Of a stretch of DNA of 64,000 nucleotides, positions 4,450 to 56,944 are shown piece by piece (the stretch's first letter is position 1; every line of letters begins with the position of its first letter). Under the pieces are notes generated by a model that made no database searches, was not told the origin of the DNA, and saw only the letters and a list, made by a program, of their open reading frames with translations. A program made the position numbers and the translations under genes. Origin of the DNA: Acidobacteriota bacterium (GTDB lineage Bacteria > Acidobacteriota > Aminicenantia > Aminicenantales > Saccharicenantaceae). The DNA lies in NCBI GenBank assembly GCA_028749205.1, contig JAQULR010000002.1, positions 59,644 to 123,643 on the forward strand, written 5' to 3'.

Positions 4450-5229
4450 TTATCCTCCACAGAGAACTGAACCTCCGTTGACATTCAGAATTTCCCCGGT
4501 TATATGGACTGCCAGGTCTGATACCAGGAAAAGGATAGGTCCGGCAATATCCTCAGGCGCTGGTATTCTCTTAAGAGGAATTGATTGCCTAACCTTTTCT
4601 TTGTAAGCAGAATCGCTGAACACTTCCGTACACATATCTGTATCTGCCCAACCTGGAGCTACACAATTAACCCTGATATTGTCTGGAGCTAATTCCACCG
4701 CCAAAGATTTGGTTAGAGAAACTAAGGCCCCTTTACTAGCCGCATAATGAGAATGAAAAGCCTCTCCTCTGACAGCTGCTGTCGAAGCCACGTTGACAAT
4801 CCAGCCTTGTTGGTTTACCTTCATCAGCTGAACTGCGGCATTGGTTACATAATAAACTCCATCCAGGTTAACTGCCATGGTCTCCCGCCAGACTTCTTCT
4901 GGCATATTTCCCATTGCTCCATAGGTCCAAATCCCAGCATTGTTGACCAGGATATCTAGCTGGTTCCAGCGGTTAGCGATTTCATTGACCATCTTCTCAA
5001 CTTGATCTCGCTTAGAAATATCAGCTTGACACAGGAGGCCGTCGCGGCCGAATCCTTCCACTACTTTTTTTACTTCCTGAGCTGCTGGGGAGTTGTCTTT
5101 ATAATGAATAGCAACATCGGCCCCAGCCTCTGCCAGAAGAATAGAAGTGGCCCGACCTATTCCTCTGGCACCACCAGTTATCAAGGCCTTTTTTCCTTCT
5201 AGCTTAATCATCACGCCAGAATGCCTCAT
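4450..5229 (-). CDS. SDR family oxidoreductase (FabG-like 3-oxoacyl reductase)
   Basis: KKALITGGARGIG Rossmann motif, NNAG, YAASKGAL catalytic motif; start chosen at 2nd ATG of ATGATG (GAGGG RBS 5 nt upstream); ORF extends to 5247 and Met at 5211 is also possible. Confidence 0.8.
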   Translation of the reverse strand: MRHSGVMIKLEGKKALITGGARGIGRATSILLAEAGADVAIHYKDNSPAAQEVKKVVEGFGRDGLLCQADISKRDQVEKMVNEIANRWNQLDILVNNAGIWTYGAMGNMPEEVWRETMAVNLDGVYYVTNAAVQLMKVNQQGWIVNVASTAAVRGEAFHSHYAASKGALVSLTKSLAVELAPDNIRVNCVAPGWADTDMCTEVFSDSAYKEKVRQSIPLKRIPAPEDIAGPILFLVSDLAVHITGEILNVNGGSVLCGG

Positions 5230-5239
5230 CATATCCCTC

Positions 5240-7780
5240 TCAGACATAGCTTAAGTTGAAATCTCCCATTTTATGAAATTCAAGATAACGATAAATCTGT
5301 TCAGCCTGGGGTATTACAGTCTCTTGCATTACCTTAAAGTACTTGTCGGCTGAAGGCAGTTGACCATTGACTGCAGCTACTGCTGCTAATTCAGCCGAGC
5401 TTAGATAAACTCTGGCTCCATCACCCATCCGATTGTCAAAATTCCGGGTTGAAGTGGAAATCACTGTAGCTCCAGGCTTAACCCTGGCCTGGTTTCCCAT
5501 GCATAACGAGCAACCCGGTATTTCCACCCTGGCTCCAACCTGGGCAAAGGCCGCAAACAAACCTTCCCTTTTCAGCTGGTTGTAATCCATTTTGGTAGGT
5601 GGAGTAAGCCAGATGCGGGTAGATGGATAACAGGATTTCTCAAAGATTTTGGCGGCGGCTCTGAAATGCCCAATATTGGTCATACAAGAACCGATAAAAA
5701 CTTCATCAATCTTATCTCCAGCCACCCCTGATAACAATCTGACGTCATCCGGATCATTGGGGCAGGCCAGAATAGGTTCTTTAATCTGGCCAAGGTCAAT
5801 ATCTATAACCGCAGCATATTCGGCCTTAGTATCCCTTTTTAGAAGGACGGGATTTTTTATCCAGCTTTCACAAGCCTGGATTCTTTTTTCTAAGCTATCT
5901 GAATCCTGGTAACCCTCTTCTATCATTTTTTTCATTAAGGCCACGTTGCTTTTCAGATATTCCACCACTTTTTCTTCATCTAAAGCAATGACACAGGCGG
6001 CGGCTGACCTTTCGGCCGAGGCATCTGTCAGTTCATAAGCCTGCTCTACAGTCAGGCCTTCCAAGCCCTCAATTTCCAGAATGCGTCCGTTAAAAATATT
6101 CTTCTTTCCCTTTTTAGCTACGGTCAACAGACTCTGCTTGATGGCAAAATAGGGAATAGCATTGACCACGTCCCTTAAAGTTATCCCGGATTTCAACTGT
6201 CCATAAAATCTAACCAAAACTGATTCCGGCATATCTAAAGGCATAAAACCAAGAGCTCCAGCAAAGGCTACCAGCCCTGAACCAGCTGGAAAACTAATAC
6301 CAACTGGAAACCTGGTATGAGAATCTCCACCTGTCCCCACAGTATCAGGCAGAATCAAGCGGTTCAACCAAGAATGAATAACGCCATCTCCGGGTTTGAG
6401 GGCCAGTCCTTTTCTTTCTATAACAAAACTAGCTAAGTCCTGATGCATTTTTACGTCAGTTGGCTTGGGATAGGCAGCAGTATGGCAGAAAGACTGCATG
6501 AACAATTCTGTTTGAAACTCCAAACAGGCAAGCTCCTTAAGTTCATCAGCAGTCATTGGCCCAGTGGTATCCTGCGAACCAACTGTAGTCATTTTTGGTT
6601 CACAGGCCGTGCCAGGTAATATCCCGGGCTGACCACAGGCTTGGCCCAATATTTTCTGAGCCAGAGTAAATCCCTGACCTGGTTTAGGTTCAGGATTTTG
6701 AATCTTAAGAAAAAAGTCAGCCTCTGGCCAACCGAGCTCTTTTCTAGCCCGAGCAGTTAACTGGCGGCCGATTATAAGATTCAGCCGGCCTCCTGCCCTA
6801 AATTCATCTATTATCGTGGCCGGTTTCCAGTCAAATTTAGCTAGTACCTGTCCGTTTTCATCCGTAATGATTCCTTGTCTGGTTTTTATTATTATGACAT
6901 CTCCGGTCTTGAGCTGGCTGACGTCTGCTTGAATAGGCAGCCCTCCAGAGTCCTCGGTTGTATTAAAGAAAATTGGGGCGATTAGCCCACCAATGACTAT
7001 TCCTCCACGTCTTTTGTTAGGTATATAAGGAATGTCTTCACCTATATGCCACATTAGAGAATTACAGGCTGATTTCCTAGAGGAGCCGGTGCCAATTACA
7101 TCTCCAACAAAAGCCACCTTGTAGCCTTCTTCTCTAAATTTTCTTATCACCTCTAAGCCACCAGGAAATCGAGTCTCACCCATACTCAAAGCATGAAGCG
7201 GGATATCAGGGCGGCTCCAGGCATATTTAGCCGGAGATAAGTCATCAGTATTTATTTCTCCGTCAACCTTATAAACCTTAAGCACCAATTCCTCAGGAAG
7301 TTCTGGCCGGGATAGAAACCATTCTCCTTTTGCCCATGATGTCAATACTTCCTTGGCATATTTATTGGTTTTGGAGAGAGCAACGATTTTATCATAAGCA
7401 TTGTAAACAAGTATTATGTACTTTAGGGCATCTGCAGCCAGCTGGGCCAAAGAATCAATCTCCAGCATATTTATAAGAGGGTCCACATTATAGCCGCCCA
7501 CCATAGTGCCTAAAAGGATTACGGCTCTTTCAGGGTTGACCAGGGGAGATTTTTTCCTACCAAGAGCCACTTGGCTTAGCCAACCCGCCTTAACTCTGGC
7601 GGCTTGGTCTACCCCGGGAGGGACTCTCTGCTCTAAAAGATACAAGAGCTCCTGTTCCTTTCCAGAAGGTGGATTTTCCAGAAGCTGACATAACTCTTGA
7701 GTTTCTTGAACCGTCAGAGGAGCGGGGGGAATACCCTGAGTTTCTCTTTCCTTAGCTTTCTGATAATAACTTTCCAGCAT
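5240..7780 (-). CDS. acnB: aconitate hydratase B (bifunctional aconitase 2 / 2-methylisocitrate dehydratase)
   Basis: N-terminus MLESYYQKAKERETQGIPPAPL...NPPSGKE...VPPGVDQAA closely parallels the E. coli AcnB HEAT-like N-domain; 846 aa; AGGAGA RBS. Confidence 0.9.
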   Translation of the reverse strand: MLESYYQKAKERETQGIPPAPLTVQETQELCQLLENPPSGKEQELLYLLEQRVPPGVDQAARVKAGWLSQVALGRKKSPLVNPERAVILLGTMVGGYNVDPLINMLEIDSLAQLAADALKYIILVYNAYDKIVALSKTNKYAKEVLTSWAKGEWFLSRPELPEELVLKVYKVDGEINTDDLSPAKYAWSRPDIPLHALSMGETRFPGGLEVIRKFREEGYKVAFVGDVIGTGSSRKSACNSLMWHIGEDIPYIPNKRRGGIVIGGLIAPIFFNTTEDSGGLPIQADVSQLKTGDVIIIKTRQGIITDENGQVLAKFDWKPATIIDEFRAGGRLNLIIGRQLTARARKELGWPEADFFLKIQNPEPKPGQGFTLAQKILGQACGQPGILPGTACEPKMTTVGSQDTTGPMTADELKELACLEFQTELFMQSFCHTAAYPKPTDVKMHQDLASFVIERKGLALKPGDGVIHSWLNRLILPDTVGTGGDSHTRFPVGISFPAGSGLVAFAGALGFMPLDMPESVLVRFYGQLKSGITLRDVVNAIPYFAIKQSLLTVAKKGKKNIFNGRILEIEGLEGLTVEQAYELTDASAERSAAACVIALDEEKVVEYLKSNVALMKKMIEEGYQDSDSLEKRIQACESWIKNPVLLKRDTKAEYAAVIDIDLGQIKEPILACPNDPDDVRLLSGVAGDKIDEVFIGSCMTNIGHFRAAAKIFEKSCYPSTRIWLTPPTKMDYNQLKREGLFAAFAQVGARVEIPGCSLCMGNQARVKPGATVISTSTRNFDNRMGDGARVYLSSAELAAVAAVNGQLPSADKYFKVMQETVIPQAEQIYRYLEFHKMGDFNLSYV

Positions 7781-7829
7781 GTCATAATCTCCTAAAAATT
7801 AAATTAAAAAGTTTATTAAAAAATCTTAG

Positions 7830-7900
7830 CCTGGATTATTTACAAATAATCCAGGCCAGCCTGCTTTATTCCGGACCTGATAGATTATTCCTGGGGAAAT
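7830..7900 (+). repeat. intergenic repeat family, full copy (CCTGGATTATTT-AC-AAATAATCCAGG + CTGCTTTATTCC + GATAGATTATTC + GGGGAAAT)
   Basis: Perfect 12-nt-arm palindrome 7830-7855 then conserved downstream modules; 50 nt upstream of acnB start. Confidence 0.7.
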
Positions 7901-7938
7901 CATGAACAAAAACCTATCTAAGAAAATCATCTCATGTC

Positions 7939-7999
7939 CCGATTTCCGCTTCGATTTTCGCTTTCGTATCTCTGATCTTACCATGTCTCGATTTTCTTA
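7939..7999 (+). promoter_or_regulatory. cluster of direct repeats CGATTT(T/C)CG in acnB-icd divergent region
   Basis: CCGATTTCCGCTTCGATTTTCGCTTTCG ... CTCGATTTTCTTATC; three to four spaced copies of the same 9-10-mer. Confidence 0.35.
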
Positions 8000-8205
8000 T
8001 CTTATATAGTTCCAATCCGATAAAAAAGCAAGCTGGTTTAATATCTTATGGATTCCTCTTTTTTTTGTCAAAAGAAACTGACCGGGCTTTTCTCCTCAAA
8101 AATTCTTTCGAATATCTTTATCCATCCTTTCCCAGATGTAGATTCACCTAATTACTTATAAATACTCTATATTTAGAGGTATATCCCTTAAGGAGAAAAA
8201 ACAAT

Positions 8206-8240
8206 TGATTTTATGCCCTGGAAATTATAAAATTAATAAC
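8206..8240 (+). promoter_or_regulatory. candidate sigma70-type promoter for icd (TTGATT-N17-TAAAAT)
   Basis: TTGATT at 8206 and TAAAAT 17 nt downstream, ~40 nt upstream of the icd RBS GGAGGT. Confidence 0.35.
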
Positions 8241-8279
8241 CACAATTTTATCTCAAAAAAATAAAATTCAGGAGGTACC

Positions 8280-9482
8280 ATGGAAAACAAAGCGGCTATC
8301 GACAAAGCAAAGGAGCACTTTGGAAAGTTGCTGGAAGCTCAGCTGGAGCGAGTGGAAAAAATAAAGACCGCTCCAGATTGGATTGATTACAGCCAGCTTT
8401 CACCAATCAAAATTGGGATTCTTCCAGGAGATGGAATTGGCCCATTCATCGCGGCTGAAGCTGAGAGAGTTCTTCGCTTTATGCTTGATGAGGATATCAA
8501 AAGCGGTAAAATTTACCTTAAGACAATTGAAGGTTTGACTATTGAAAACCGGGCTAAGCACAACAAGGCCATCCCAGATGATGTTCTTGAAGAAATTAAA
8601 AAGTATCATGTGACCTTAAAAGGACCGACCACTACCCCCAGAAAAGGTGATCCCTGGCCTAATATCGAAAGCTGCAACGTAGCCATGAGAAAGGAGCTCG
8701 ATCTATTTGCCAACGTTAGGCCAGTCAGGGTACCCAATCAGGGCATTGATTGGATTTTTTTCAGAGAAAATACTGAAGACCTCTATGCCCTTGGCCCTTA
8801 TGGAATTGAAGTCGGGCCCGATATTGCTATTGATTTTAAGCTAATAACCTCTCCCGGCTCCGAACGTATTTGCCGGATGGCCTTGGAATATGCTCGGAAG
8901 AATAATAAGACCAAAGTCACCTGCATAACCAAAGCCAATGTAGTTAAAACCACTGATGGCAAATTTCTGGAAGTCTTTTACAACTTAGCCAAGGAATATC
9001 CTGAGCTTCAGGTAGATGATTGGTACATTGATATCATGACTGCTAAGTTGGTCGATGAAAAGAGGCGGCGCGAATTCCAGGTTATGGTCCTGCCTAATCT
9101 CTATGGTGATATTCTTACTGATGAAGCCGCTGAATTCCAGGGTGGTGTAGGTACAGCCGGTGCGGCTAATATCGGCAAGCAGTACGCCATGTTTGAAGCT
9201 ATTCATGGCTCAGCTCCCAGAATGGTAAAGGAAAACCGGGCTATATATGCAGACCCAGCCAGCATGATCCGGGCTGCAGCTATGCTTATAAACCATATCG
9301 GCTACACTGATAAAGCCAAAAAGTTAGAAATGGCCTTGGATATCTGCGGGCAGTATGAAAAGAAGCTGGTTATCACCGGTCGTCCTAATGGAGCCACTGG
9401 AAAAGCCTTTACGGATTATTTGATTGACTGGCTGAACAATCCTAAACTGCAGGAAACCTGGGAGGGTTATGTTAAGGGGTAA
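8280..9482 (+). CDS. icd: isocitrate dehydrogenase (NADP-type, isocitrate/isopropylmalate DH family)
   Basis: NLYGDILTDEAA motif, 400 aa, strong RBS; sits in a TCA cluster. Confidence 0.9.
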   Translation: MENKAAIDKAKEHFGKLLEAQLERVEKIKTAPDWIDYSQLSPIKIGILPGDGIGPFIAAEAERVLRFMLDEDIKSGKIYLKTIEGLTIENRAKHNKAIPDDVLEEIKKYHVTLKGPTTTPRKGDPWPNIESCNVAMRKELDLFANVRPVRVPNQGIDWIFFRENTEDLYALGPYGIEVGPDIAIDFKLITSPGSERICRMALEYARKNNKTKVTCITKANVVKTTDGKFLEVFYNLAKEYPELQVDDWYIDIMTAKLVDEKRRREFQVMVLPNLYGDILTDEAAEFQGGVGTAGAANIGKQYAMFEAIHGSAPRMVKENRAIYADPASMIRAAAMLINHIGYTDKAKKLEMALDICGQYEKKLVITGRPNGATGKAFTDYLIDWLNNPKLQETWEGYVKG

Positions 9483-9584
9483 GAAATCTAAATTCTAAGC
9501 TCAAACGCTAAAGTGCTTATTGAGGGTTTAATCCTCAACTAATAAGATTAAATTTGATAAAAATTTTTGAGGAGGAGTTATAAA

Positions 9585-10517
9585 ATGCGTAAAAAGATAG
9601 CTCTGATCGGAGGCGGTCAGATCGGTCAAATTCTGGCCATGCTGGCCGCTCAGAAAGAACTTGGAGACATCGTCATTCTGGATGTCCCTGATTATGCTAA
9701 GGTATGCCAGGGTAAAGCTCTGGACCTGATGGAAATGGCTCCCCATGGAAATTATGATGCCAACATTACAGCCACCTCTGATTACCAGGATATTGCTGGG
9801 GCTGATGTAGTGATAGTTACTGCCGGAAAACCTCGAGAAGCCGGGATGACCAGAGAAGACTTGCTTAATGTCAACATTAAAATCATCTCTGAGGTAGCCA
9901 AAGGCGTAAAGCAATACGCCCCTAACGCCTTCTGTATCATTGTAACCAACCCGCTTGATGCTATGGTCTATGTCTTCCATAAAGTGACCGGATTCCCCAA
10001 GCATCAGGTTGTTGGCATGGCCGGCACCCTGGACACAGCCCGCTGGAGAGCTTTTATTGCCATGGAATTGGGGGTGTCAGTGGCCGATGTGGCTGGGACT
10101 GTTCTCGGAGGACATGGCCCGGACATGGTCCCTCTCCCTCGGCTGACCACAATTGGTGGAGTCCCCCTTTCGGAAATCGCTACTCCAGAACAGATTGAGA
10201 AACTGATAGCCAGAACCAGAGAAGCCGGAACGGAAATTGTCAAATTGTTTGGAAAAGGTTCTGCCTTTTTCAGCCCAGCCTGGAGCGCCATTGTGATTGC
10301 TGAATCCTACCTCAAGGATAAGCGTCGGGTCCTACCCTGCGCTGCCCTCTGTGAAGGAGAATATGGAATTAACGGCCTGTTCATCGGTGTGCCCTGCCTT
10401 ATCAGCGGGAAAGGTATGGAAAAGATTTTTGAAATTAAACTCACCGATGAAGAAAAAGCTCAGTTTGAAAAAACTATCAGTTCTGTGACTAAAACCGTTT
10501 CTGAGTGCCAGATCTAA
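9585..10517 (+). CDS. mdh: malate dehydrogenase (LDH-like MDH)
   Basis: MRKKIALIGGGQIGQ NAD-binding N-terminus, VTNPLD motif; GGAGGAG RBS 8 nt before the ATG at 9585 (the ORF-track TTG start at 9567 rejected). Confidence 0.9.
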   Translation: MRKKIALIGGGQIGQILAMLAAQKELGDIVILDVPDYAKVCQGKALDLMEMAPHGNYDANITATSDYQDIAGADVVIVTAGKPREAGMTREDLLNVNIKIISEVAKGVKQYAPNAFCIIVTNPLDAMVYVFHKVTGFPKHQVVGMAGTLDTARWRAFIAMELGVSVADVAGTVLGGHGPDMVPLPRLTTIGGVPLSEIATPEQIEKLIARTREAGTEIVKLFGKGSAFFSPAWSAIVIAESYLKDKRRVLPCAALCEGEYGINGLFIGVPCLISGKGMEKIFEIKLTDEEKAQFEKTISSVTKTVSECQI

Positions 10518-10558
10518 ACAAGCAAAAAAATAATTAAAATTCCAGCGGGTAGAGATAA

Positions 10559-10598
10559 AAGAAAACAGGGCCGTTTTAAGCGGCTCTGTTTTCTTTAA
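10559..10598 (+). terminator. rho-independent terminator after mdh
   Basis: AAGAAAACAG / CTGTTTTCTT 10-bp perfect stem around GGCCGTTTTAAGCGGCT loop, followed by a T run. Confidence 0.6.
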
Positions 10599-10774
10599 AC
10601 GTAAAAAGGCTTGAGGAACATCCTGGCAGGGATGAAGTTGAACTAAAAAAGTTCTTGAATGTGAATAAATCAAATATTAAAGCTGGCAATAAAGTTGGCA
10701 AGACTGTTTGATTGCAGAAAATCTTAAAACCGTTTCAACCCCGGGCCTAACCGGGCTTATTTAAGATAATAAAA

Positions 10775-11941
10775 ATGCTCATTCAAGAATATCAAGCCAA
10801 AAGGATTCTTAAAGCCTTGGGAATCCAGACCCCCGAAGGCTACTTAGCTGAATCGCCTGAGCAAATCATAAAAATATGTAAGGCCCTGGGTAGTCCAGCA
10901 GTTCTCAAAGCCCAGATTCTCTCAGGTGGCCGGGGCCAGGCCGGGGGCATACTTTTAGCCAGAGAACCAGAGGAGGCAGAATCATTAGCCAGAAATCTGT
11001 TCGGGAAAAGATTGATAACTTCCCAAACCGGAAACCGTGGATTAGTGGTTAGGAAGATTCTGGTAGAAAAGGCTCTTAACATAAAAAAAGAGTGCTATCT
11101 CGGGTTAGCTGTTGACCGGGAACATGAGACCCTTCTGGCTCTGGTCAGCCGTGAGGGTGGTATCCAAATTGAAGAATTATCCCGCCAGAAGCCTGAGCTT
11201 ATCAAAATAATATCTTTCAACCCTGATGAAGGAATGAGACCATTTCAGGCTCGGCAACTGGCTTATTTTTTGGAACTGGAAGAAGATCTGATTAAACAGT
11301 TAGTATCATTGTTGAGAAACCTTTCCGGATTTTTCATAGAAAAAGACCTTAAGCTTTTAGAGGTGAATCCTTTGGTATTGACTGAAAGCCGGCTCCTGGT
11401 AGCTGCTGATGTCAAAATGGAGTTCGATGATTGCAGTCTGGAGCGGCATCAAGATATCTCCGGGCTACTCGATTTCAGCGATGACTCAGAGGAGGAAATG
11501 GAAGCTAGAAATTTCAAGCTTAACTATTTGAGGATGGAAGGAAACATAGGGTGTCTGGTAAATGGAGCCGGGCTGGCCATGGCTACCATGGATATTATCA
11601 GCCATTTCGGTGGCCAGCCAGCTAATTTTTTGGATATCGGAGGTGGGGTAACTGAAGAAGCTGTCAACAAGGCTTTTGAAATTCTGATTTCGGACGATCG
11701 GGTAACTTCAGCTCTGGTAAATATATTTGGGGGAATTGTCCGCTGCGATTTAGTAGCCAGAGGTGTAGTAAATTGCGCCGAACGGCTTGGGCTTAAAAAG
11801 CCAGTGGTAGTCAGGATGGAAGGAACTAATGTGATTGAAGGCCAGAAGATTTTAAAGGAATCAGGCCTTCCTTTTCATCTGGCTGATGATTTTGAGCAAG
11901 CAGCCAGGCTGGTTGTTTCTTTGAGCGGAAGAGAAAAATGA
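10775..11941 (+). CDS. sucC: succinyl-CoA synthetase beta subunit
   Basis: MLIQEYQAKRIL ATP-grasp N-terminus; 388 aa; 4-nt overlap with sucD. Confidence 0.9.
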   Translation: MLIQEYQAKRILKALGIQTPEGYLAESPEQIIKICKALGSPAVLKAQILSGGRGQAGGILLAREPEEAESLARNLFGKRLITSQTGNRGLVVRKILVEKALNIKKECYLGLAVDREHETLLALVSREGGIQIEELSRQKPELIKIISFNPDEGMRPFQARQLAYFLELEEDLIKQLVSLLRNLSGFFIEKDLKLLEVNPLVLTESRLLVAADVKMEFDDCSLERHQDISGLLDFSDDSEEEMEARNFKLNYLRMEGNIGCLVNGAGLAMATMDIISHFGGQPANFLDIGGGVTEEAVNKAFEILISDDRVTSALVNIFGGIVRCDLVARGVVNCAERLGLKKPVVVRMEGTNVIEGQKILKESGLPFHLADDFEQAARLVVSLSGREK

Positions 11942-12813
11942 GTATCTTGGTTAAAGCCAAGACTAGAATCCTGGTTCAAGGGATAACAGGAAAGGAAGCC
12001 ACTTTTCATACTCAGAGAATGCAAGAATATGGGACCAGAGTCGTGGCTGGGGTAACCCCAGGGAAAGGCGGCCAGAGTCATCTGGGTTTACCAGTCTTCA
12101 ACACTGTCGAGCAAGCCAGAAGCGCTGAGGCTCCTGAGGTTTCGGTAATTTTCGTCCCGCCCCGGGCTGGGGCCGATGCTATTATGGAGGCAGCCGACGC
12201 TGGTATCAAACTGATTGTCTGTATTACTGAAGGAATTCCAGTCATTGATATGCTCAGGGCAAAAGCCTTTCTAAAAAAGACCAATTCCAAACTTATCGGA
12301 CCAAATACCCCTGGGATAATTTCCCCAGGCAAAAGCAAGGTAGGAATAATGCCTGGACACATTCATATTCCAGGCCCTGTTGGCCTGATTTCCCGCTCTG
12401 GCACCCTGACTTATGAAGCTGTTCATCAACTGACCAAGCTGGGAGTCGGTCAATCAACTGCCGTAGGTATCGGGGGGGATTCCATCTGTGGCCTTAAATT
12501 CGCCGAATTACTGGAGATGTTTAGGGAAGACCTCCAGACGAAAGCCCTAATTTTGATTGGAGAAATAGGTGGAACTGCAGAAGAAGAAGCTGCTGGCTAC
12601 CTGAAACAAATCTCTTACCCTAAACCAATTCTGGCTTATGTGGCTGGGGTAACCGCTCCACCGGGCAAGCGGCTCGGACATGCCGGAGCCATAATCGAAG
12701 GAAGCCGGGGGACCGCTCAGGATAAAACAAATTGCCTCAAGGAGGCCGGGGTAAGAATCATCTCAAATCCGGCCCGAATCGGTCAGGAAACAAAAGCTAT
12801 TCTTATAAACTAA
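11938..12813 (+). CDS. sucD: succinyl-CoA synthetase alpha subunit
   Basis: ILVQGITGKEATFHT CoA-binding N-terminus, SRSGTLTYE motif; 291 aa. Confidence 0.9.
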   Translation: MSILVKAKTRILVQGITGKEATFHTQRMQEYGTRVVAGVTPGKGGQSHLGLPVFNTVEQARSAEAPEVSVIFVPPRAGADAIMEAADAGIKLIVCITEGIPVIDMLRAKAFLKKTNSKLIGPNTPGIISPGKSKVGIMPGHIHIPGPVGLISRSGTLTYEAVHQLTKLGVGQSTAVGIGGDSICGLKFAELLEMFREDLQTKALILIGEIGGTAEEEAAGYLKQISYPKPILAYVAGVTAPPGKRLGHAGAIIEGSRGTAQDKTNCLKEAGVRIISNPARIGQETKAILIN

Positions 12814-12958
12814 GCCTGACAGATTTGCTTTCTCCTGAAAGCTGAAGGCTACCAGTTAAGAAGAAAAATCTGGGAATCGCCCGGCTTGATTTATTTGTTC
12901 CCCTTGTTCGATATAAAATGGTAAAATAAAAAAAAGAAAAGGAGAAAAGGAGGGATAA

Positions 12959-13879
12959 ATGAAAAGAGGCAATAATATGACCAGGTTAAGGACCGTGGTA
13001 ATATGGCTAATCCCAATTTTTGGGATCTTAATTCTCTCAGGGTTGTGCCTAAGTACCAGTGCTTTTAATTGGCAGCAGCAGGCAACTCCCCCACCGATAA
13101 TCGTAGAAAATGTCAGAGACAACATCTATTTAGTCAAAGGAGGCTCCGGAGCTAACTGCTATTTCTTAGCTGGAGATAAAACCAATCTTCTTTTCGACGC
13201 CAAAATGAGCCCGGATTCCATGAAGGAAATGCTATCTGAAATCCAGAAAATTTCTCCCCGACCTCTTTCAATGGTTATCCTGACCCACAGCGACGGCGAT
13301 CACACTAATGGTCTGCCAGGTCTTCCAGAAGGTACAAAAATTATATCCCATAAGAAGGCCTTCGAAGAAATGCTCCCCGCAGTTGAAAAAAGCCCTGAGC
13401 TAAAAAAATTCTTGCCTTCAGAGACCTACGAGGACCGGAAAAAGCTCGATTTTGAAGGGACCAAGCTAGAACTCAGGAATTTTGGCCCAGCTCATACCAG
13501 TGGTGATACCATAGCCATTATCCCGACCAGCAAAGTGGCCATAGTCGGAGACCTGGTATTTATCGGCCGGGACCCATTGATCCACCAGCACAAAAATGGG
13601 TCCTTTTATGGACTTATAAAAACCCTGGAATCTCTTCTGGCTTATAAGCCTGAAATTGAATTATTTTTATCAGGCCATGCTGACCCCGTGGGGCGAGAAG
13701 AAGTAATTAGCCTCCTCAATACCCTTAAGCAGACCGAGGCTCGGGTAAGAGAAATGATCCAACAGAACAAGACCTTAGAGGAAATAAAGGCTGCTTTTGG
13801 CCTTCAGCTTACCTCACCCCCACCCCGCCGTCCCCCTTTAGTTGAAATCATCTATCAAGAAATAATGGCAAAAAAATAA
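12959..13879 (+). CDS. secreted/membrane-anchored MBL-fold metallo-hydrolase
   Basis: N-terminal hydrophobic anchor; THSDGDHTNG (HxHxDH) metal-binding motif; GGAGGG RBS. Confidence 0.7.
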   Translation: MKRGNNMTRLRTVVIWLIPIFGILILSGLCLSTSAFNWQQQATPPPIIVENVRDNIYLVKGGSGANCYFLAGDKTNLLFDAKMSPDSMKEMLSEIQKISPRPLSMVILTHSDGDHTNGLPGLPEGTKIISHKKAFEEMLPAVEKSPELKKFLPSETYEDRKKLDFEGTKLELRNFGPAHTSGDTIAIIPTSKVAIVGDLVFIGRDPLIHQHKNGSFYGLIKTLESLLAYKPEIELFLSGHADPVGREEVISLLNTLKQTEARVREMIQQNKTLEEIKAAFGLQLTSPPPRRPPLVEIIYQEIMAKK

Positions 13880-14801: not shown

Positions 14802-14869
14802 CCCGGATTAAGATGAAATAATCCAGGTCAGTTGGCATTATTATCTTGAAGATAGATTAAGTTAATAGG
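14802..14869 (+). repeat. intergenic repeat family copy between convergent gene ends
   Basis: CCCGGATTAAG-ATGA-AATAATCCAGG ... GATAGATTAAG; followed by an (AT)n-like tract at 14905-14932. Confidence 0.6.
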
Positions 14870-14939
14870 CAAGCCAAACTTAAAGCTGGCCAGCAATTCA
14901 AAGCTGTAATATATATTTATATATATATTTCCTCTGTTG

Positions 14940-16667: not shown

Positions 16668-16710
16668 CCTGGACAAGTCATAAATAATCCAGGTAAACTT
16701 GATTTATTTC
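16668..16710 (+). repeat. intergenic repeat family copy upstream of M14 peptidase gene
   Basis: CCTGGACAAGTCATAAATAATCCAGG + TAAACTTGATTTATTTC. Confidence 0.6.
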
Positions 16711-16775
16711 TTTTTACCAGATGAATATCACCATATATGTTCATATTTGTAGATAATCATAACTTATTATTAAAT

Positions 16776-18130: not shown

Positions 18131-19381
18131 TTACTTTAAATCAGGAAATTCAGTCAAAAGACTCTCTAAAGCAAAATTAGCCAGGGATTCCTGAAATCCA
18201 GCTACCTTCTCCGGGCTCTCTCTCTTCCTTTCCCAGATTCTTAGCTGATTCTGTGCTTTTTCCAGAACCTGATTTTCCAGCCCTAATATTTTGTTCAGGA
18301 CACCGTTTCCACCATAAGTTCTAAGCCGGTTGACATTAAGGTATTGACTCATTCTACCGCCTTGATCAGGATAAAGAAAAGCTACCAGTTTACGGGAAAA
18401 GGCATTAAGAGGACTGGTCTTTTCGCCCGGAGCCGAAGCGGCCTCCGGAACCCTCTCTGAATAAGGCCAGACCGGTATGGCCACACTGCTTATCGGCTGG
18501 CCAAGTATTACCCACATGGTAGCCAGGTCAGGCCGGTCAGAAGATGGCGCCCCCTCAAAAACCACAACTGAGGCAGTGCTATTACGATTAATGGTATCAT
18601 TGGTGTTGACATAGAGCGGTCTGGCCGGGTCTTCCGGTAGCTTACAGGATAAGGGATAAGAATGAAGTTTTTCATGGACCAGATCCCTGGCAGCCTGTTG
18701 TAAAATAAACCTAGCATTAAGATCATTGTAAGCCCGGGCTGATTCCGCTAAATGGGACATTCTTTCAAACCGGATAAAGCCCCCACCTTCAAGATAGTCA
18801 GGCGAAGTATAGGAAAAATTTGTCCTGACAATATAACCGAAGGGAGCCACTTTCTTATCATTGGCATCAAAACGGGTGTAATAATCACAGGAAGTCTCAA
18901 AAAAAGAGGCCTCTCCATTAGCATCTATTATCCCGAAGTTAGCTGACAGATCCCATTTTCCTTTTTCTTTCTGGAGAAACTTTTCAAAATCATCAACTGT
19001 GGCGCACTCACCCAGAACCAGCTTCATGAAAACCCCATTATCAGAGCCGCCATCCTTTCTCTCCTTAGCTATCAGATCATCAGCCTGGGAATTCATTATC
19101 GCCAGACCACGGTCATTCAAGCCGGCCCAAATTTCCCGACCTGAAACATCAGCTGAATTAATTAAGCCGATAAAGTTATATTTAGGACCTCTAAAATACA
19201 TTAGTTTGTTCAAAAGGGCAGAAGTATCCCGGTTTTTCCACATCAGGGCCCGGCCATTGCTGGTAGCTTTACCCGAAGCCAAAATCAGGGTGCAAGCTGA
19301 AGCCTCATTCTGAAAGGCCTGGAGAAAAAGAAACAAGGCCATCAAAGTGAAGACTAGAAAATGATTCCTTTTTAGTTTCAT
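18131..19381 (-). CDS. secreted Ntn-hydrolase peptidase, C69 dipeptidase-like
   Basis: Signal peptide then ACTLILASGKATSNGRALMWKNRD, paralleling the C69 N-terminal nucleophile motif CT(T)ILVGK..S.DGS.MIARNED. Confidence 0.6.
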   Translation of the reverse strand: MKLKRNHFLVFTLMALFLFLQAFQNEASACTLILASGKATSNGRALMWKNRDTSALLNKLMYFRGPKYNFIGLINSADVSGREIWAGLNDRGLAIMNSQADDLIAKERKDGGSDNGVFMKLVLGECATVDDFEKFLQKEKGKWDLSANFGIIDANGEASFFETSCDYYTRFDANDKKVAPFGYIVRTNFSYTSPDYLEGGGFIRFERMSHLAESARAYNDLNARFILQQAARDLVHEKLHSYPLSCKLPEDPARPLYVNTNDTINRNSTASVVVFEGAPSSDRPDLATMWVILGQPISSVAIPVWPYSERVPEAASAPGEKTSPLNAFSRKLVAFLYPDQGGRMSQYLNVNRLRTYGGNGVLNKILGLENQVLEKAQNQLRIWERKRESPEKVAGFQESLANFALESLLTEFPDLK

Positions 19382-19432
19382 TTTTAAGTCCTTTTTTTGA
19401 ATTTAAAACTTCTCTTGATCATTGGCTATTAT

Positions 19433-19503
19433 CCTGGATTACGCAGAAATAATCCAGATCAATCTGCTTTATTCCCAACTTGATAGATTATTCTCGGGGA
19501 AAA
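19433..19503 (+). repeat. intergenic repeat family, full copy (~81% identical to the 7830 copy over 70 nt, no gaps)
   Basis: CCTGGATTACGCAGAAATAATCCAGA + CTGCTTTATTCC + TGATAGATTATTC + GGGGAAAA; 52 nt upstream of the C69 peptidase start. Confidence 0.7.
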
Positions 19504-19625
19504 TAAGCTGATTGAAAATCTCGAGACAGGTTCAGTTTTGTGAACGAACCGTATATTATAATCATCCCCCTAAGGAATAAAGATATTTTTAGCTGCTGAT
19601 ATGATTCTTGAAATAAGTACTAAGA

Positions 19626-34175: not shown

Positions 34176-34232
34176 CCTAGATTACTCCCAAATAATCCAG
34201 GTTAACCTGCGTTATCAATGCAGGCGATTAAG
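34176..34232 (+). repeat. intergenic repeat family copy upstream of MFS gene
   Basis: CCTAGATTACTCCCAAATAATCCAGG + TTAACCTGCGTTATCAATGCAGG (own hairpin) + CGATTAAG. Confidence 0.6.
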
Positions 34233-36344: not shown

Positions 36345-36390
36345 CCAGAATTATTCAAAAATAATCCAGAGTATCTTTCGTTTTTTGGGT
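36345..36390 (+). repeat. intergenic repeat family copy upstream of the Ca-binding secreted protein gene
   Basis: CCAGAATTATTCAAAAATAATCCAGAG; additional GAGATTATTC half-sites at 36431 and 36461. Confidence 0.55.
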
Positions 36391-36666
36391 CAATTGGACT
36401 GAATGTTTATCTGGTAACATTAATTAGCCGAGATTATTCATAAAACTTTCCCTACTCTGAGATTATTATTAATGGTTGAGAAAAAAATGGTAACATCTTT
36501 TATTAGAAAATAATCATAGAATTTTCGGGAAAAATTATGATAATTCTAAGCCTGCCTGAAATCCTGCCATAAAAAACGTAAGTTGATTTATAAAATCCAT
36601 CCAGATAGATTTATATCGTCGAGTGGGGCAAATATTGGTATAATTAACCACCGTGAGGCAGTTTAG

Positions 36667-43906: not shown

Positions 43907-43952
43907 GATAACCTATCCTTTTAAATTTAATTATTTTTCTAAGTTTTATTAT

Positions 43953-44018
43953 CCCGAATTAATCACCAATAATCCAGTTAAACCTGCTTTATTCCTCTTC
44001 ACCATAAAGAAATCAGGG
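43953..44018 (+). repeat. intergenic repeat family copy upstream of the GS-family gene
   Basis: CCCGAATTAATCACCAATAATCCAGT + TAAACCTGCTTTATTCC + ...GAAATCAGGGAC. Confidence 0.6.
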
Positions 44019-44113
44019 ACAAGAACCGATTATATAAAATCATCTCAGACTCCATATTTTTTTAACGATGATGGAAAATATCATGACCGGTTTAGTTTTA
44101 TTTATAATTGAGT

Positions 44114-48362: not shown

Positions 48363-48416
48363 GTTCCAGAAGCTGAAATAAGAACAATTTATCAGATTGG
48401 CCATCAGGCAGTTTGA

Positions 48417-48448
48417 CCTGGATTATTTATGAGTATGAGTAATCTAGA
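48417..48448 (+). repeat. intergenic repeat family, palindrome-only variant
   Basis: CCTGGATTATTT-ATGAGTATGAGT-AATCTAGA (right arm = revcomp of the CTAGATTACT variant); second CCAGGATTATAT at 48486. Confidence 0.5.
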
Positions 48449-52619: not shown

Positions 52620-52910
52620 ATAAAAATAGTTGTTAGACCTGCATTATTCATAAAACTTAACAAGTCTTGAGATTTCGAATCATCATATGTAGGGAGATTT
52701 GGACATGATACGATCTTCCTATGCATCACAAAGTCCAGGGATTTAGCTTAGGAATGAATGGTAAATTTTGATAATTTTTCGGTGTGGGGTTCTGCTTACT
52801 GTATAAGAAGCAGATAGTACACTTTAGCCTGTAGAGGCTCCGACTAAATTGGCCAGTATGCTAAATTTTCATCGAGAATGATCTATCGAGCCTGGGATAA
52901 AGTAGGTTTA

Positions 52911-52936
52911 TCTGGATTATTTATAAATACTCTAGG
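52911..52936 (+). repeat. intergenic repeat family, palindrome-only variant between the two TBDR genes
   Basis: TCTGGATTATTT-AT-AAATACTCTAGG; the ATAAATACTCTA 12-mer recurs at 8150. Confidence 0.5.
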
Positions 52937-56858: not shown

Positions 56859-56944
56859 TGCCGGAGGAGGGAGTCGAACCCACACCCGAAATGAATCGGA
56901 CTGGATTTTGAGTCCAGCGCGTCTGCCTATTCCGCCACTCCGGC
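56859..56944 (-). tRNA. tRNA-Leu (anticodon CAA)
   Basis: 86-nt cloverleaf: acceptor GCCGGAG/CTCCGGC, anticodon stem CTGGA/TCCAG with loop CTCAAAA, long variable arm (CCGA...TCGG), TTCGACT T-loop; CCA not encoded. Confidence 0.85.

Follow-up and report, generated by a model that had tools for sequence, protein, structure and literature searches.

Related Bacterial Repeats

The Correia elements (CREE/NEMIS) of Neisseria are bacterial MITEs that duplicate a TA at their target. The repeat family described here was found in a 64-kb stretch of DNA (the window) from an uncultured host of the Aminicenantes (Acidobacteriota), and it resembles the Correia elements in several respects. Both are short and non-coding with many dispersed copies, both hold terminal inverted repeats that give a long hairpin when transcribed, and both reside at AT-rich targets near genes with which they are often co-transcribed. 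Size variants arise through internal deletion, and promoter-like sequences can be carried in both cases. However, there is no sequence similarity between the two, and the duplication in the present family is apparently 7-8 bp in length as opposed to TA. An additional terminal palindrome, a back-to-back repeat pair, is present at one end only, and the element therefore has polarity. This palindrome end shows a strong bias towards the start codon of the adjacent gene, a further difference from the Correia elements.

REP sequences, typically located 3′ of genes, generate no target duplication and are accompanied by a linked RAYT gene. Together with BIMEs and REPINs, they are mobilised by RAYTs (PMC8049555). 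The present family shares with them short intergenic palindromes in alternating orientation with hundreds of copies per genome, the last by extrapolation. In contrast to REPs, it has direct repeats at two resolved inserts and a preference for the 5′ side of genes. The IS1595 family has a subgroup with ends of the type CcTGATT. An apparent duplication of approximately 8 bp at an AT-rich target is seen at two sites in the present family, and the termini of the element, beginning CCTGGATT, would resemble such ends. Direct repeats of 8 bp are documented for ISApl4, a member of the IS1595 family (PMC12561309). An IS1595-family insertion sequence is a possible parent and may serve as a lead.

A survey of “putative mobile promoters”, in which the Correia elements also get mention, revealed that some such cases are insertion sequences or repeats (PMC3575422). 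The likeness lies in near-identical non-coding sequence upstream of non-homologous genes, which is also what a sequence-only reading of the window had noted. The term describes a class and not a mechanism, and promoter activity in the present family is predicted only. As a type of bacterial repeat the element is ordinary, but a literature search found no description of this Aminicenantes repeat family.

The Repeat Family in the Window

A sequence-only reading of the window had pointed to two stretches, 7830-7900 (within copy A) and 19433-19503 (within copy B), as a gapless match of about 81% over 70 nt. This is borne out by alignment, with 13 mismatches in 70 positions and 14 in 71, leaving 57 of 71 positions identical (80%). 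The best score of the 71-mer in 30 random 64-kb windows, generated by a first-order Markov model, is 34-38 of 71. The flanks of the two stretches are unrelated, as had been stated. The description of the stretches as two full-length copies has to be revised on both counts. A third copy of the same module is located at 52866-52936 on the minus strand, with 54 of 71 positions identical to copy B, and palindrome pattern, profile searches and repeat finding place at least 10 copies of the family in the window. The end of copy A is at 8040 and that of copy B near 19553. The 70-nt stretches are the proximal module common to a 212-nt and a 122-nt element and not complete copies.

The palindrome pattern occurs at 8 sites in the window against an expectation of 0.01. 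Hairpins are positioned near 1604(-), 7830, 14802, 16668, 19433, 34176, 36345, 43953, 48441(-) and 52936(-). The copies span 45-307 nt, are intergenic and contain no ORF. With part lengths summed against 6.3 kb of intergenic DNA, the family makes up approximately 20% of the intergenic DNA of the window. At a density of about one copy per 6-10 kb, extrapolation to a genome of 3-4 Mb yields several hundred copies. The G+C content of the window is 43.6%. A relation to HIP1, or a cyanobacterial origin, is excluded by the count of 0 HIP1 sites (GCGATCGC) in the window.

Anatomy and Fold of the Element

The anatomy is written on the window plus strand, as for copies A and B. One variable base precedes the terminal palindrome, which measures 26 nt and consists of CCTGGATTATT, a spacer of 3-5 nt and AATAATCCAGG. 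It is followed by 4-6 nt, the repeat CCTGCTTTATTCC, 5 nt, and then TGATAGATTATTC and CGGGGAAAAT. The repeat CCTGCTTTATTCC forms an inner inverted pair with GAATAATGCAGGTTTA, and the arms of this pair are similar to those of the palindrome; the consensus of the inverted repeats is CCTG[G/C][A/T]TTATTC versus GAATAAT[G/C]CAGG. The complete element has a conserved block, TGATAGATTATTC-GGGGAAAAT. Its interior, GGGACACGAACCGATTT...CATGTCCCGATTTTCTTATCAATGATAATTGAAAATCTCGAGACATGTTCAGTTTTATGAATAAT, reads GGGACACGAACCGATTTAAGAAAATCGTATCATGTCCCGATTTTCTTATCAATGATAATTGAAAATCTCGAGACATGTTCAGTTTTATGAATAATGCAGGTTTA and is deleted to a varying extent among the copies. The distal GAATAATGCAGG is an inverted copy of both the proximal CCTGCTTTATTC and the palindrome arm CCTGGATTATT. 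The outermost ends form an imperfect inverted pair, because TTTA is added at one end and the palindrome at the other, with the palindrome lying outside the best inverted repeat.

Copy A is a long form of 212 nt (7829-8040, plus strand) in the 5′ leader of acnB. Its hairpin occupies 7829-7856, and the inner inverted repeats at 7857-7878 and 8014-8037 are paired in the fold of the leader, where a pairing of approximately 22 nt joins the distal end to the proximal repeat (z = -3.7). Copy B is a short form of about 122 nt (19432-19553, plus strand; nhmmer 19433-19552, E 5e-26), and its interior is some 90 nt shorter than in the long copies. It comprises the hairpin at 19433-19458, the inner repeat CTGCTTTATTCC at 19464-19475, TGATAGATTATTC/GGGGAAAA at 19481-19503 and the distal module GATTGAAAATCTCGAGACAGGTTCAGTTTTGTGAACGAACCG at 19510-19551. 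A copy of about 157 nt (43952-44108, plus strand) occupies the greater part of the DNA from the NamZ stop codon to the start of a glutamine-synthetase-like gene, with 47 nt from the hairpin to the ATG of the latter. Additional similarity to copy A is found here, at 44009-44047 against 7896-7934.

The longest copy, about 307 nt (52630-52936, minus strand), directs its distal end, and not its hairpin, towards a TonB-dependent receptor gene. It contains an additional internal segment of about 146 nt (52719-52864). Extra segments of 106-146 nt are present in this copy and in both copies of the metagenome contig L066, at 585-690 and about 1576-1689, where the similarity was seen by tblastx. This segment is possibly a small repeat in its own right that is nested within the element. 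At the other extreme, a minimal copy (34176-34224, plus strand) consists of the hairpin followed by CCTGCGTTATCAATGCAGG, in which the inner repeats are joined and the interior is deleted; it lies 44 nt from the start of an MFS transporter gene.

The remaining copies are degenerate, apart from a short copy at 14802-14877. The copy at 36345-36400 (plus strand) lies 26 nt from the start of a 615-aa gene and that at 16668-16715 (plus strand), which is also short, lies 37 nt from the start of an M14 carboxypeptidase gene. On the minus strand, the copy at 48380-48441 has its hairpin end towards a plus-strand NUDIX gene, at about 99 nt from the start, and the copy at 1531-1618 likewise faces a plus-strand gene that starts at 1677. 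The short copy at 14802-14877 (plus strand) is one of the exceptions in placement, as it resides in the convergent gap between an OmpA-like gene and the M14 gene and faces no gene start. It was also observed that an inverted distal-module fragment (36421-36508, minus strand) adjoins the 36345 copy in the gap between the divergent 615-aa and 470-aa genes. This arrangement looks as if two elements had been inserted tail to tail.

Filled and Empty Sites

The two stretches had been placed by the sequence-only reading upstream of unrelated genes, acnB and a C69 peptidase. The location relative to two minus-strand genes and the identity of acnB both stand, but the second gene is not of the C69 family. 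Located at 18131-19381 on the minus strand, it encodes 416 aa, matches Pfam PF03417 and is named “C45 family peptidase” at its source, by which it is assigned as a C45/AAT-family peptidase of the acyl-CoA:6-APA acyltransferase type. The hairpin end of copy B is 52 nt from its start codon.

The gene downstream of copy A, acnB (aconitate hydratase 2; 5240-7780, minus strand), starts 50 nt from the hairpin end. Its predicted ancestral promoter, TTGACA-17-TAAGAT, is at 8043-8071 on the minus strand, scores 10/12 and is conserved in five relatives. Copy A begins 2 nt past the -10 hexamer and lies wholly ahead of the ribosome-binding site, which puts the entire element in the acnB leader. The distance from promoter to ATG is about 265-290 nt in the window versus about 55-70 nt in the five relatives. 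In the closest of these compared (L093, AcnB 93% identical), TTGACA-17-TAAGAT is followed by 53 nt, the Shine-Dalgarno sequence AGGAG and the ATG with no insert, and the acnB leader of the window is approximately 212 nt longer than in this relative. Four further syntenic loci (L019-L022, AcnB 78-87% identical) hold no copy in 22 kb each, and their acnB promoter, TTGACA-17-TAAGAT with TAAACT in L019, is 55-70 nt from the ATG. In the window, acnB is divergent from an icd-mdh-sucC-sucD cluster (5240-13879 for the whole region), and this order of TCA-cycle genes is kept in all Aminicenantes loci that were examined. The AcnB homologue P0002 of L019 (10001-12772) is annotated with 923 aa. As the usual Shine-Dalgarno sequence and ATG lie 231 nt past the called start, its N-terminal extension is probably a gene-calling error.

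Similar comparisons can be made at other sites. The gene order EF-G / C45 / ChaN-PDZ / M14 / OmpA is shared by the window and a Saccharicenans locus (L095), which is without copies at the sites of 19433, 16668 and 14802. A second relative (L094, C45 gene 89% identical) is uninformative for the site of copy B, as its contig begins inside the gene. In total, six syntenic loci of relatives are without a copy, and the full-length HMM found no match in L019-L022, L093, L095, L099 or L101. The reading had proposed a comparison of orthologous regions for presence or absence, and relatives indeed carry no copy in the orthologous intergenic DNA at acnB, C45, M14 and OmpA.

Polymorphism was also found among closely related strains. 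A copy of about 215 nt is directly upstream of the desulfoferrodoxin-fprA (dfx-fprA) genes in L092, L074 and L086. The dfx site is empty in L099, L100 and L101, with an adjacent gene that is 97% nucleotide-identical to that of the filled strains. The presence and absence of the element at orthologous sites decides for a mobile unit. A second indel of about 130 nt distinguishes filled and empty Saccharicenans strains (L092, about 4755-4885, versus L099), with copies of a roughly 18-nt direct repeat, ATT(T)ATTCACCTTAGTTA, on either side. This indel is possibly a different small insertion or duplication.

These comparisons bear on the two explanations that the sequence-only reading had offered. 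The empty orthologous sites speak for duplication of a mobile unit, as do the two filled/empty comparisons, in which inserts of about 212-215 nt are bounded by short direct repeats. That the duplication was “recent” holds in relative terms only: copies within the window are 20-30% divergent, but the Saccharicenans insertion is polymorphic among strains that are 97% identical in the flanking gene. Purifying selection on a composite regulatory site shared by the two promoters fails because relatives lack copies at the same sites, and this was the comparison by which the reading itself had proposed to judge the question. Its remark that the repeat is more than an operator half-site was correct.

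The element is short (below about 600 bp) and non-coding, dispersed with unrelated flanks, furnished with inverted repeats and polymorphic in its insertion, as is characteristic of MITEs. It is thus most likely a MITE-like, non-coding, non-autonomous transposon family and not a conserved regulatory site.

Junctions and Target Duplication

On either side of copy A lie AAATCTTA (7821-7828) and ATATCTTA (8041-8048), which form a direct repeat with 7 of 8 positions identical, and the distal repeat is overlapped by the acnB -10 box. On the gene strand the flanks read TAAGATTT and TAAGATAT, with TAAGAT[A/T]T in common, and the empty site of L093 carries a single TAAGATAA. At the dfx site, the insert of L092 lies between GTTAAAATAT and TAAATATAAAGGAGG, and the empty strains read GTTAAAATATAAAAAACACAAAGGAGG. 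The direct repeat is here TAAAATAT/TAAATAT, i.e., TAAA(A)TAT, with a length of about 7 bp. An additional 9-nt indel at the L092/L099 junction was called unrelated. The element spans N-CCTGG to CAGGTTTA at both resolved sites.

A check for target-site duplications, also suggested by the earlier reading, therefore gave a divided outcome. Both resolved inserts have direct repeats of 7-8 bp at their edges, in AT-rich sequence similar to a -10 box, but four other copies, the ends of which are less certain, have no clean repeat, so that clean repeats are found at 2 of about 6 copies with both ends placeable. For this reason the duplication is graded as probable and not as proven, and its length of 6-8 bp is insecure given the AT-rich context and boundaries that were chosen post hoc. 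A duplication of TTA or TA suits some copies and was set aside because the two resolved sites point to 7-8 bp. A DDE transposase would be consistent with a duplication of approximately 8 bp.

The junctions also weigh on the possibility of a REP/REPIN-type or IS200/IS605-derived palindromic element that is moved as single-stranded DNA by a Y1 enzyme (RAYT/TnpA). In favour of such an origin are the imperfect but conserved palindrome (about 26 nt), frequently with TTA/GTAG-like bases before it, and related 11-mers in alternating orientation as in BIMEs. Yet Y1 elements make no direct repeats, which flank the two resolved inserts. IS200/IS605-derived elements lack inverted terminal repeats and insert strand-specifically 3′ of a fixed tetranucleotide, whereas in the present family clear inverted repeats bound a variable interior. 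In addition, orientation tracks the neighbouring gene and not one DNA strand, and no RAYT gene was seen in the part of the genome examined. A Y1-mobilised origin is accordingly quite improbable.

Placement Relative to Genes

In 8 of the 10 window copies the palindrome end is directed towards a start codon less than 100 nt away (26-99 nt). Under random placement and orientation in the intergenic DNA of the window, the chance of this is 0.23 per copy, and 8 of 10 corresponds to P = 2.5e-4. Outside the window, most copies show the same placement, namely those of L092, L066a, L084, L026 and L090b, with L090a and the groES copy of L098 as exceptions. A tally of orientation only gives 13 versus 4 (p = 0.05). 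Since the two minus-oriented window copies that obey the rule face plus-strand genes, the bias follows the genes and not the replication strand, and a replication-strand bias of the IS200/IS605 kind was rejected on the same grounds.

A bias of this strength in position and orientation is not what is usually seen in a purely selfish MITE, and the element could have a cellular role. A rival explanation would be a composite regulatory site (an operator with a promoter, or a leader) under purifying selection in one regulon, for example of peptide and nitrogen or TCA-cycle genes, with a dimeric regulator bound to the palindrome. In its favour are the palindrome with 12-bp arms at 26-52 nt from start codons, in fixed orientation, and the presence of acnB, a GlnA-like gene and several peptidase genes downstream. 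Against this, five to six relatives have their own conserved promoter at the orthologous position and no copy of the site, which is also polymorphic among near-identical strains. Some copies are found within a convergent gap, in reverse orientation or ahead of the groES promoter and CIRCE, and deletions of varying extent affect the interior. The genes downstream are of mixed function and include acnB and the GlnA-like gene, M14, C45 and S58 peptidases, an MFS transporter, NUDIX, deformylase and dfx-fprA. It is very unlikely that the family is a regulon of this kind, though secondary co-option of an element as a regulatory site may have occurred.

The reverse-oriented groES copy in L098 is positioned upstream of the gene’s own TTGACA promoter and CIRCE operator. 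In this groES-groEL operon (6029-6120), which belongs to the same species as the window, the canonical TTGACA promoter is followed by a CIRCE-like inverted repeat, TTAGCACTC-N9-GACTGCTAA.

Promoter, Terminator and RNA Readings

A consensus scan revealed promoter-like sequences directed towards the palindrome end in some long copies. These are TTGATA-17-TACGAT in L066a and TTAATA-17-TATGAT in L090a, both with a TG before the -10 hexamer. Weaker versions are present in L092 and copy A, and copy B is without this part of the element. An internal promoter in some long copies is thus possible on the strength of the consensus matches. Several other signals were considered at the hairpin and rejected. 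A sigma-54 -24/-12 site has its spacing off by one and the GC is not conserved, a FliA site would have far too long a spacing, and the Bacteroidota -33/-7 motif is absent. A hybrid sigma-70 promoter with its -35 in the hairpin (TGGATT, 3/6) was rejected on reading the sequence.

Combined with the placement bias, the promoter-like matches would allow the element to be a mobile leader/promoter cassette. It would target -10-like AT-rich sequences, insert or survive only with its palindrome end gene-ward, supply an internal sigma-70-type promoter (TTGATA-17-TACGAT) and present a palindrome near the ribosome-binding site that a host or transposase-derived protein could bind. This proposal is unlikely, but if it were true, hundreds of unrelated genes for the TCA cycle, glutamine synthetase, peptidases and oxidative stress would be under shared control in one Aminicenantes lineage.

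The hairpin has also been considered as part of a structured cis-regulatory RNA, i.e., a riboswitch-like leader or attenuator, or of a small-RNA gene family. The copies in the 5′ leaders of acnB and dfx are suitably located, the leader of copy A and copy B fold better than shuffled sequence (z = -3.7 and -2.2, respectively), and the hairpin with its T-rich flank is terminator-like in copy A and L066a. The folding excess is not decisive, as it is expected of any element with inverted repeats. The sequence is conserved rather than the pairing: changes in the outer palindrome arm (CCCGG, CCTAG, CCAGA, CCCGA, CCTTG) are uncompensated in the inner arm, and pairing as such is therefore not under selection. 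The conservation of AAATAATCCAG in the inner arm is in part ascertainment, since the search patterns contained AAATAATCCAG. Furthermore, Rfam 15 gave no family match at the gathering score or at E <= 5, the T-run is unconserved, the interior is dispensable, and reverse-oriented and non-leader copies exist. An RNA function as the basis of the family is highly doubtful.

An intrinsic terminator was likewise rejected as a feature of the family, since copy A and L066a are the only copies with a T-run after the hairpin. The copy A palindrome (7827-7858, minus strand), followed by AGATTTTTTA, has an intrinsic-terminator-like score, and this T-run is absent in copy B. The site in copy A could attenuate acnB in this strain. 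The only Rfam match in the window is an 86-nt tRNA gene at 56859-56944 on the minus strand, which is probably of the long-variable-arm type given its length.

Proposed Mode of Transposition and Its Consequences

For the MITE-like family, it is proposed that a DDE-type transposase, supplied in trans, would move the element by a cut-or-copy and paste process with an 8-bp staggered cut. The parent element would be bounded by CCTGGATTATT ... AATAATGCAGGTTTA. No transposase gene with these ends was found in the approximately 130 kb of the species that was examined. Its preferred targets would be AT-rich and of the TAARAT type, similar to a -10 box, and such sequences are frequent in promoters and leaders. 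The orientation bias would most likely result from this target preference together with selection against the orientation that blocks expression. In the case of acnB, transcription would now proceed through a strongly folded leader that is about 212 nt longer, or would start from the promoter-like site within the element.

For annotation, such repeats should be masked or labelled as mobile, and not as operators, riboswitches or terminators. They break metagenomic assemblies and reshape 5′ leaders. The bias in position and orientation at gene starts provides a testable case of the possible rewiring of expression by a MITE in an uncultured phylum.

Distribution Beyond the Window

A pattern scan of metagenome contigs returned 70 stretches, of which only about 8 were confirmed by the profile. 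The confirmed contigs are L026, L066, L084, L090 and L074/L086/L092. The window (JAQVFQ010000002) and L084 (contig 11, JAQVFQ010000011) belong to the same MAG, GCA_033348515.1, and further copies are present on contigs JAQVFQ010000011, L098, L066 and L090. L026 encodes a protein listed by NCBI in Acidobacteriota MAGs, and L066 and L090 share the sample Ga0265295 with L026 and L084. It would appear that L026, L066 and L090 are of the same species as the window. The FprA protein of L092 falls in a cluster named Ca. Saccharicenans sp., and the AcnB homologues are assigned to Acidobacteriota, Ca. Aminicenantes and Ca. Saccharicenans.

Among GTDB representative genomes, which evidently do not include the source species, a pattern scan with AATAATCCAGNNNNNNCTGCKTTAT gave 15 single matches in unrelated taxa, which is the chance level. 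Matches in a scan of viral contigs were also at the chance level only, and blastn of the full element against plasmids gave no match. The best explanation is that the family is specific to some Aminicenantes lineages.

Partial and simple forms have also been found. The simple form CCTGGATTATTC...GAATAATGTAGG is located at 12170-12233 of L098. Distal modules with no recognisable palindrome end occur at 5729-5796 of L096 and at 20766-20837 of L098, and these may be truncated elements or members of a sister family with one end in common.
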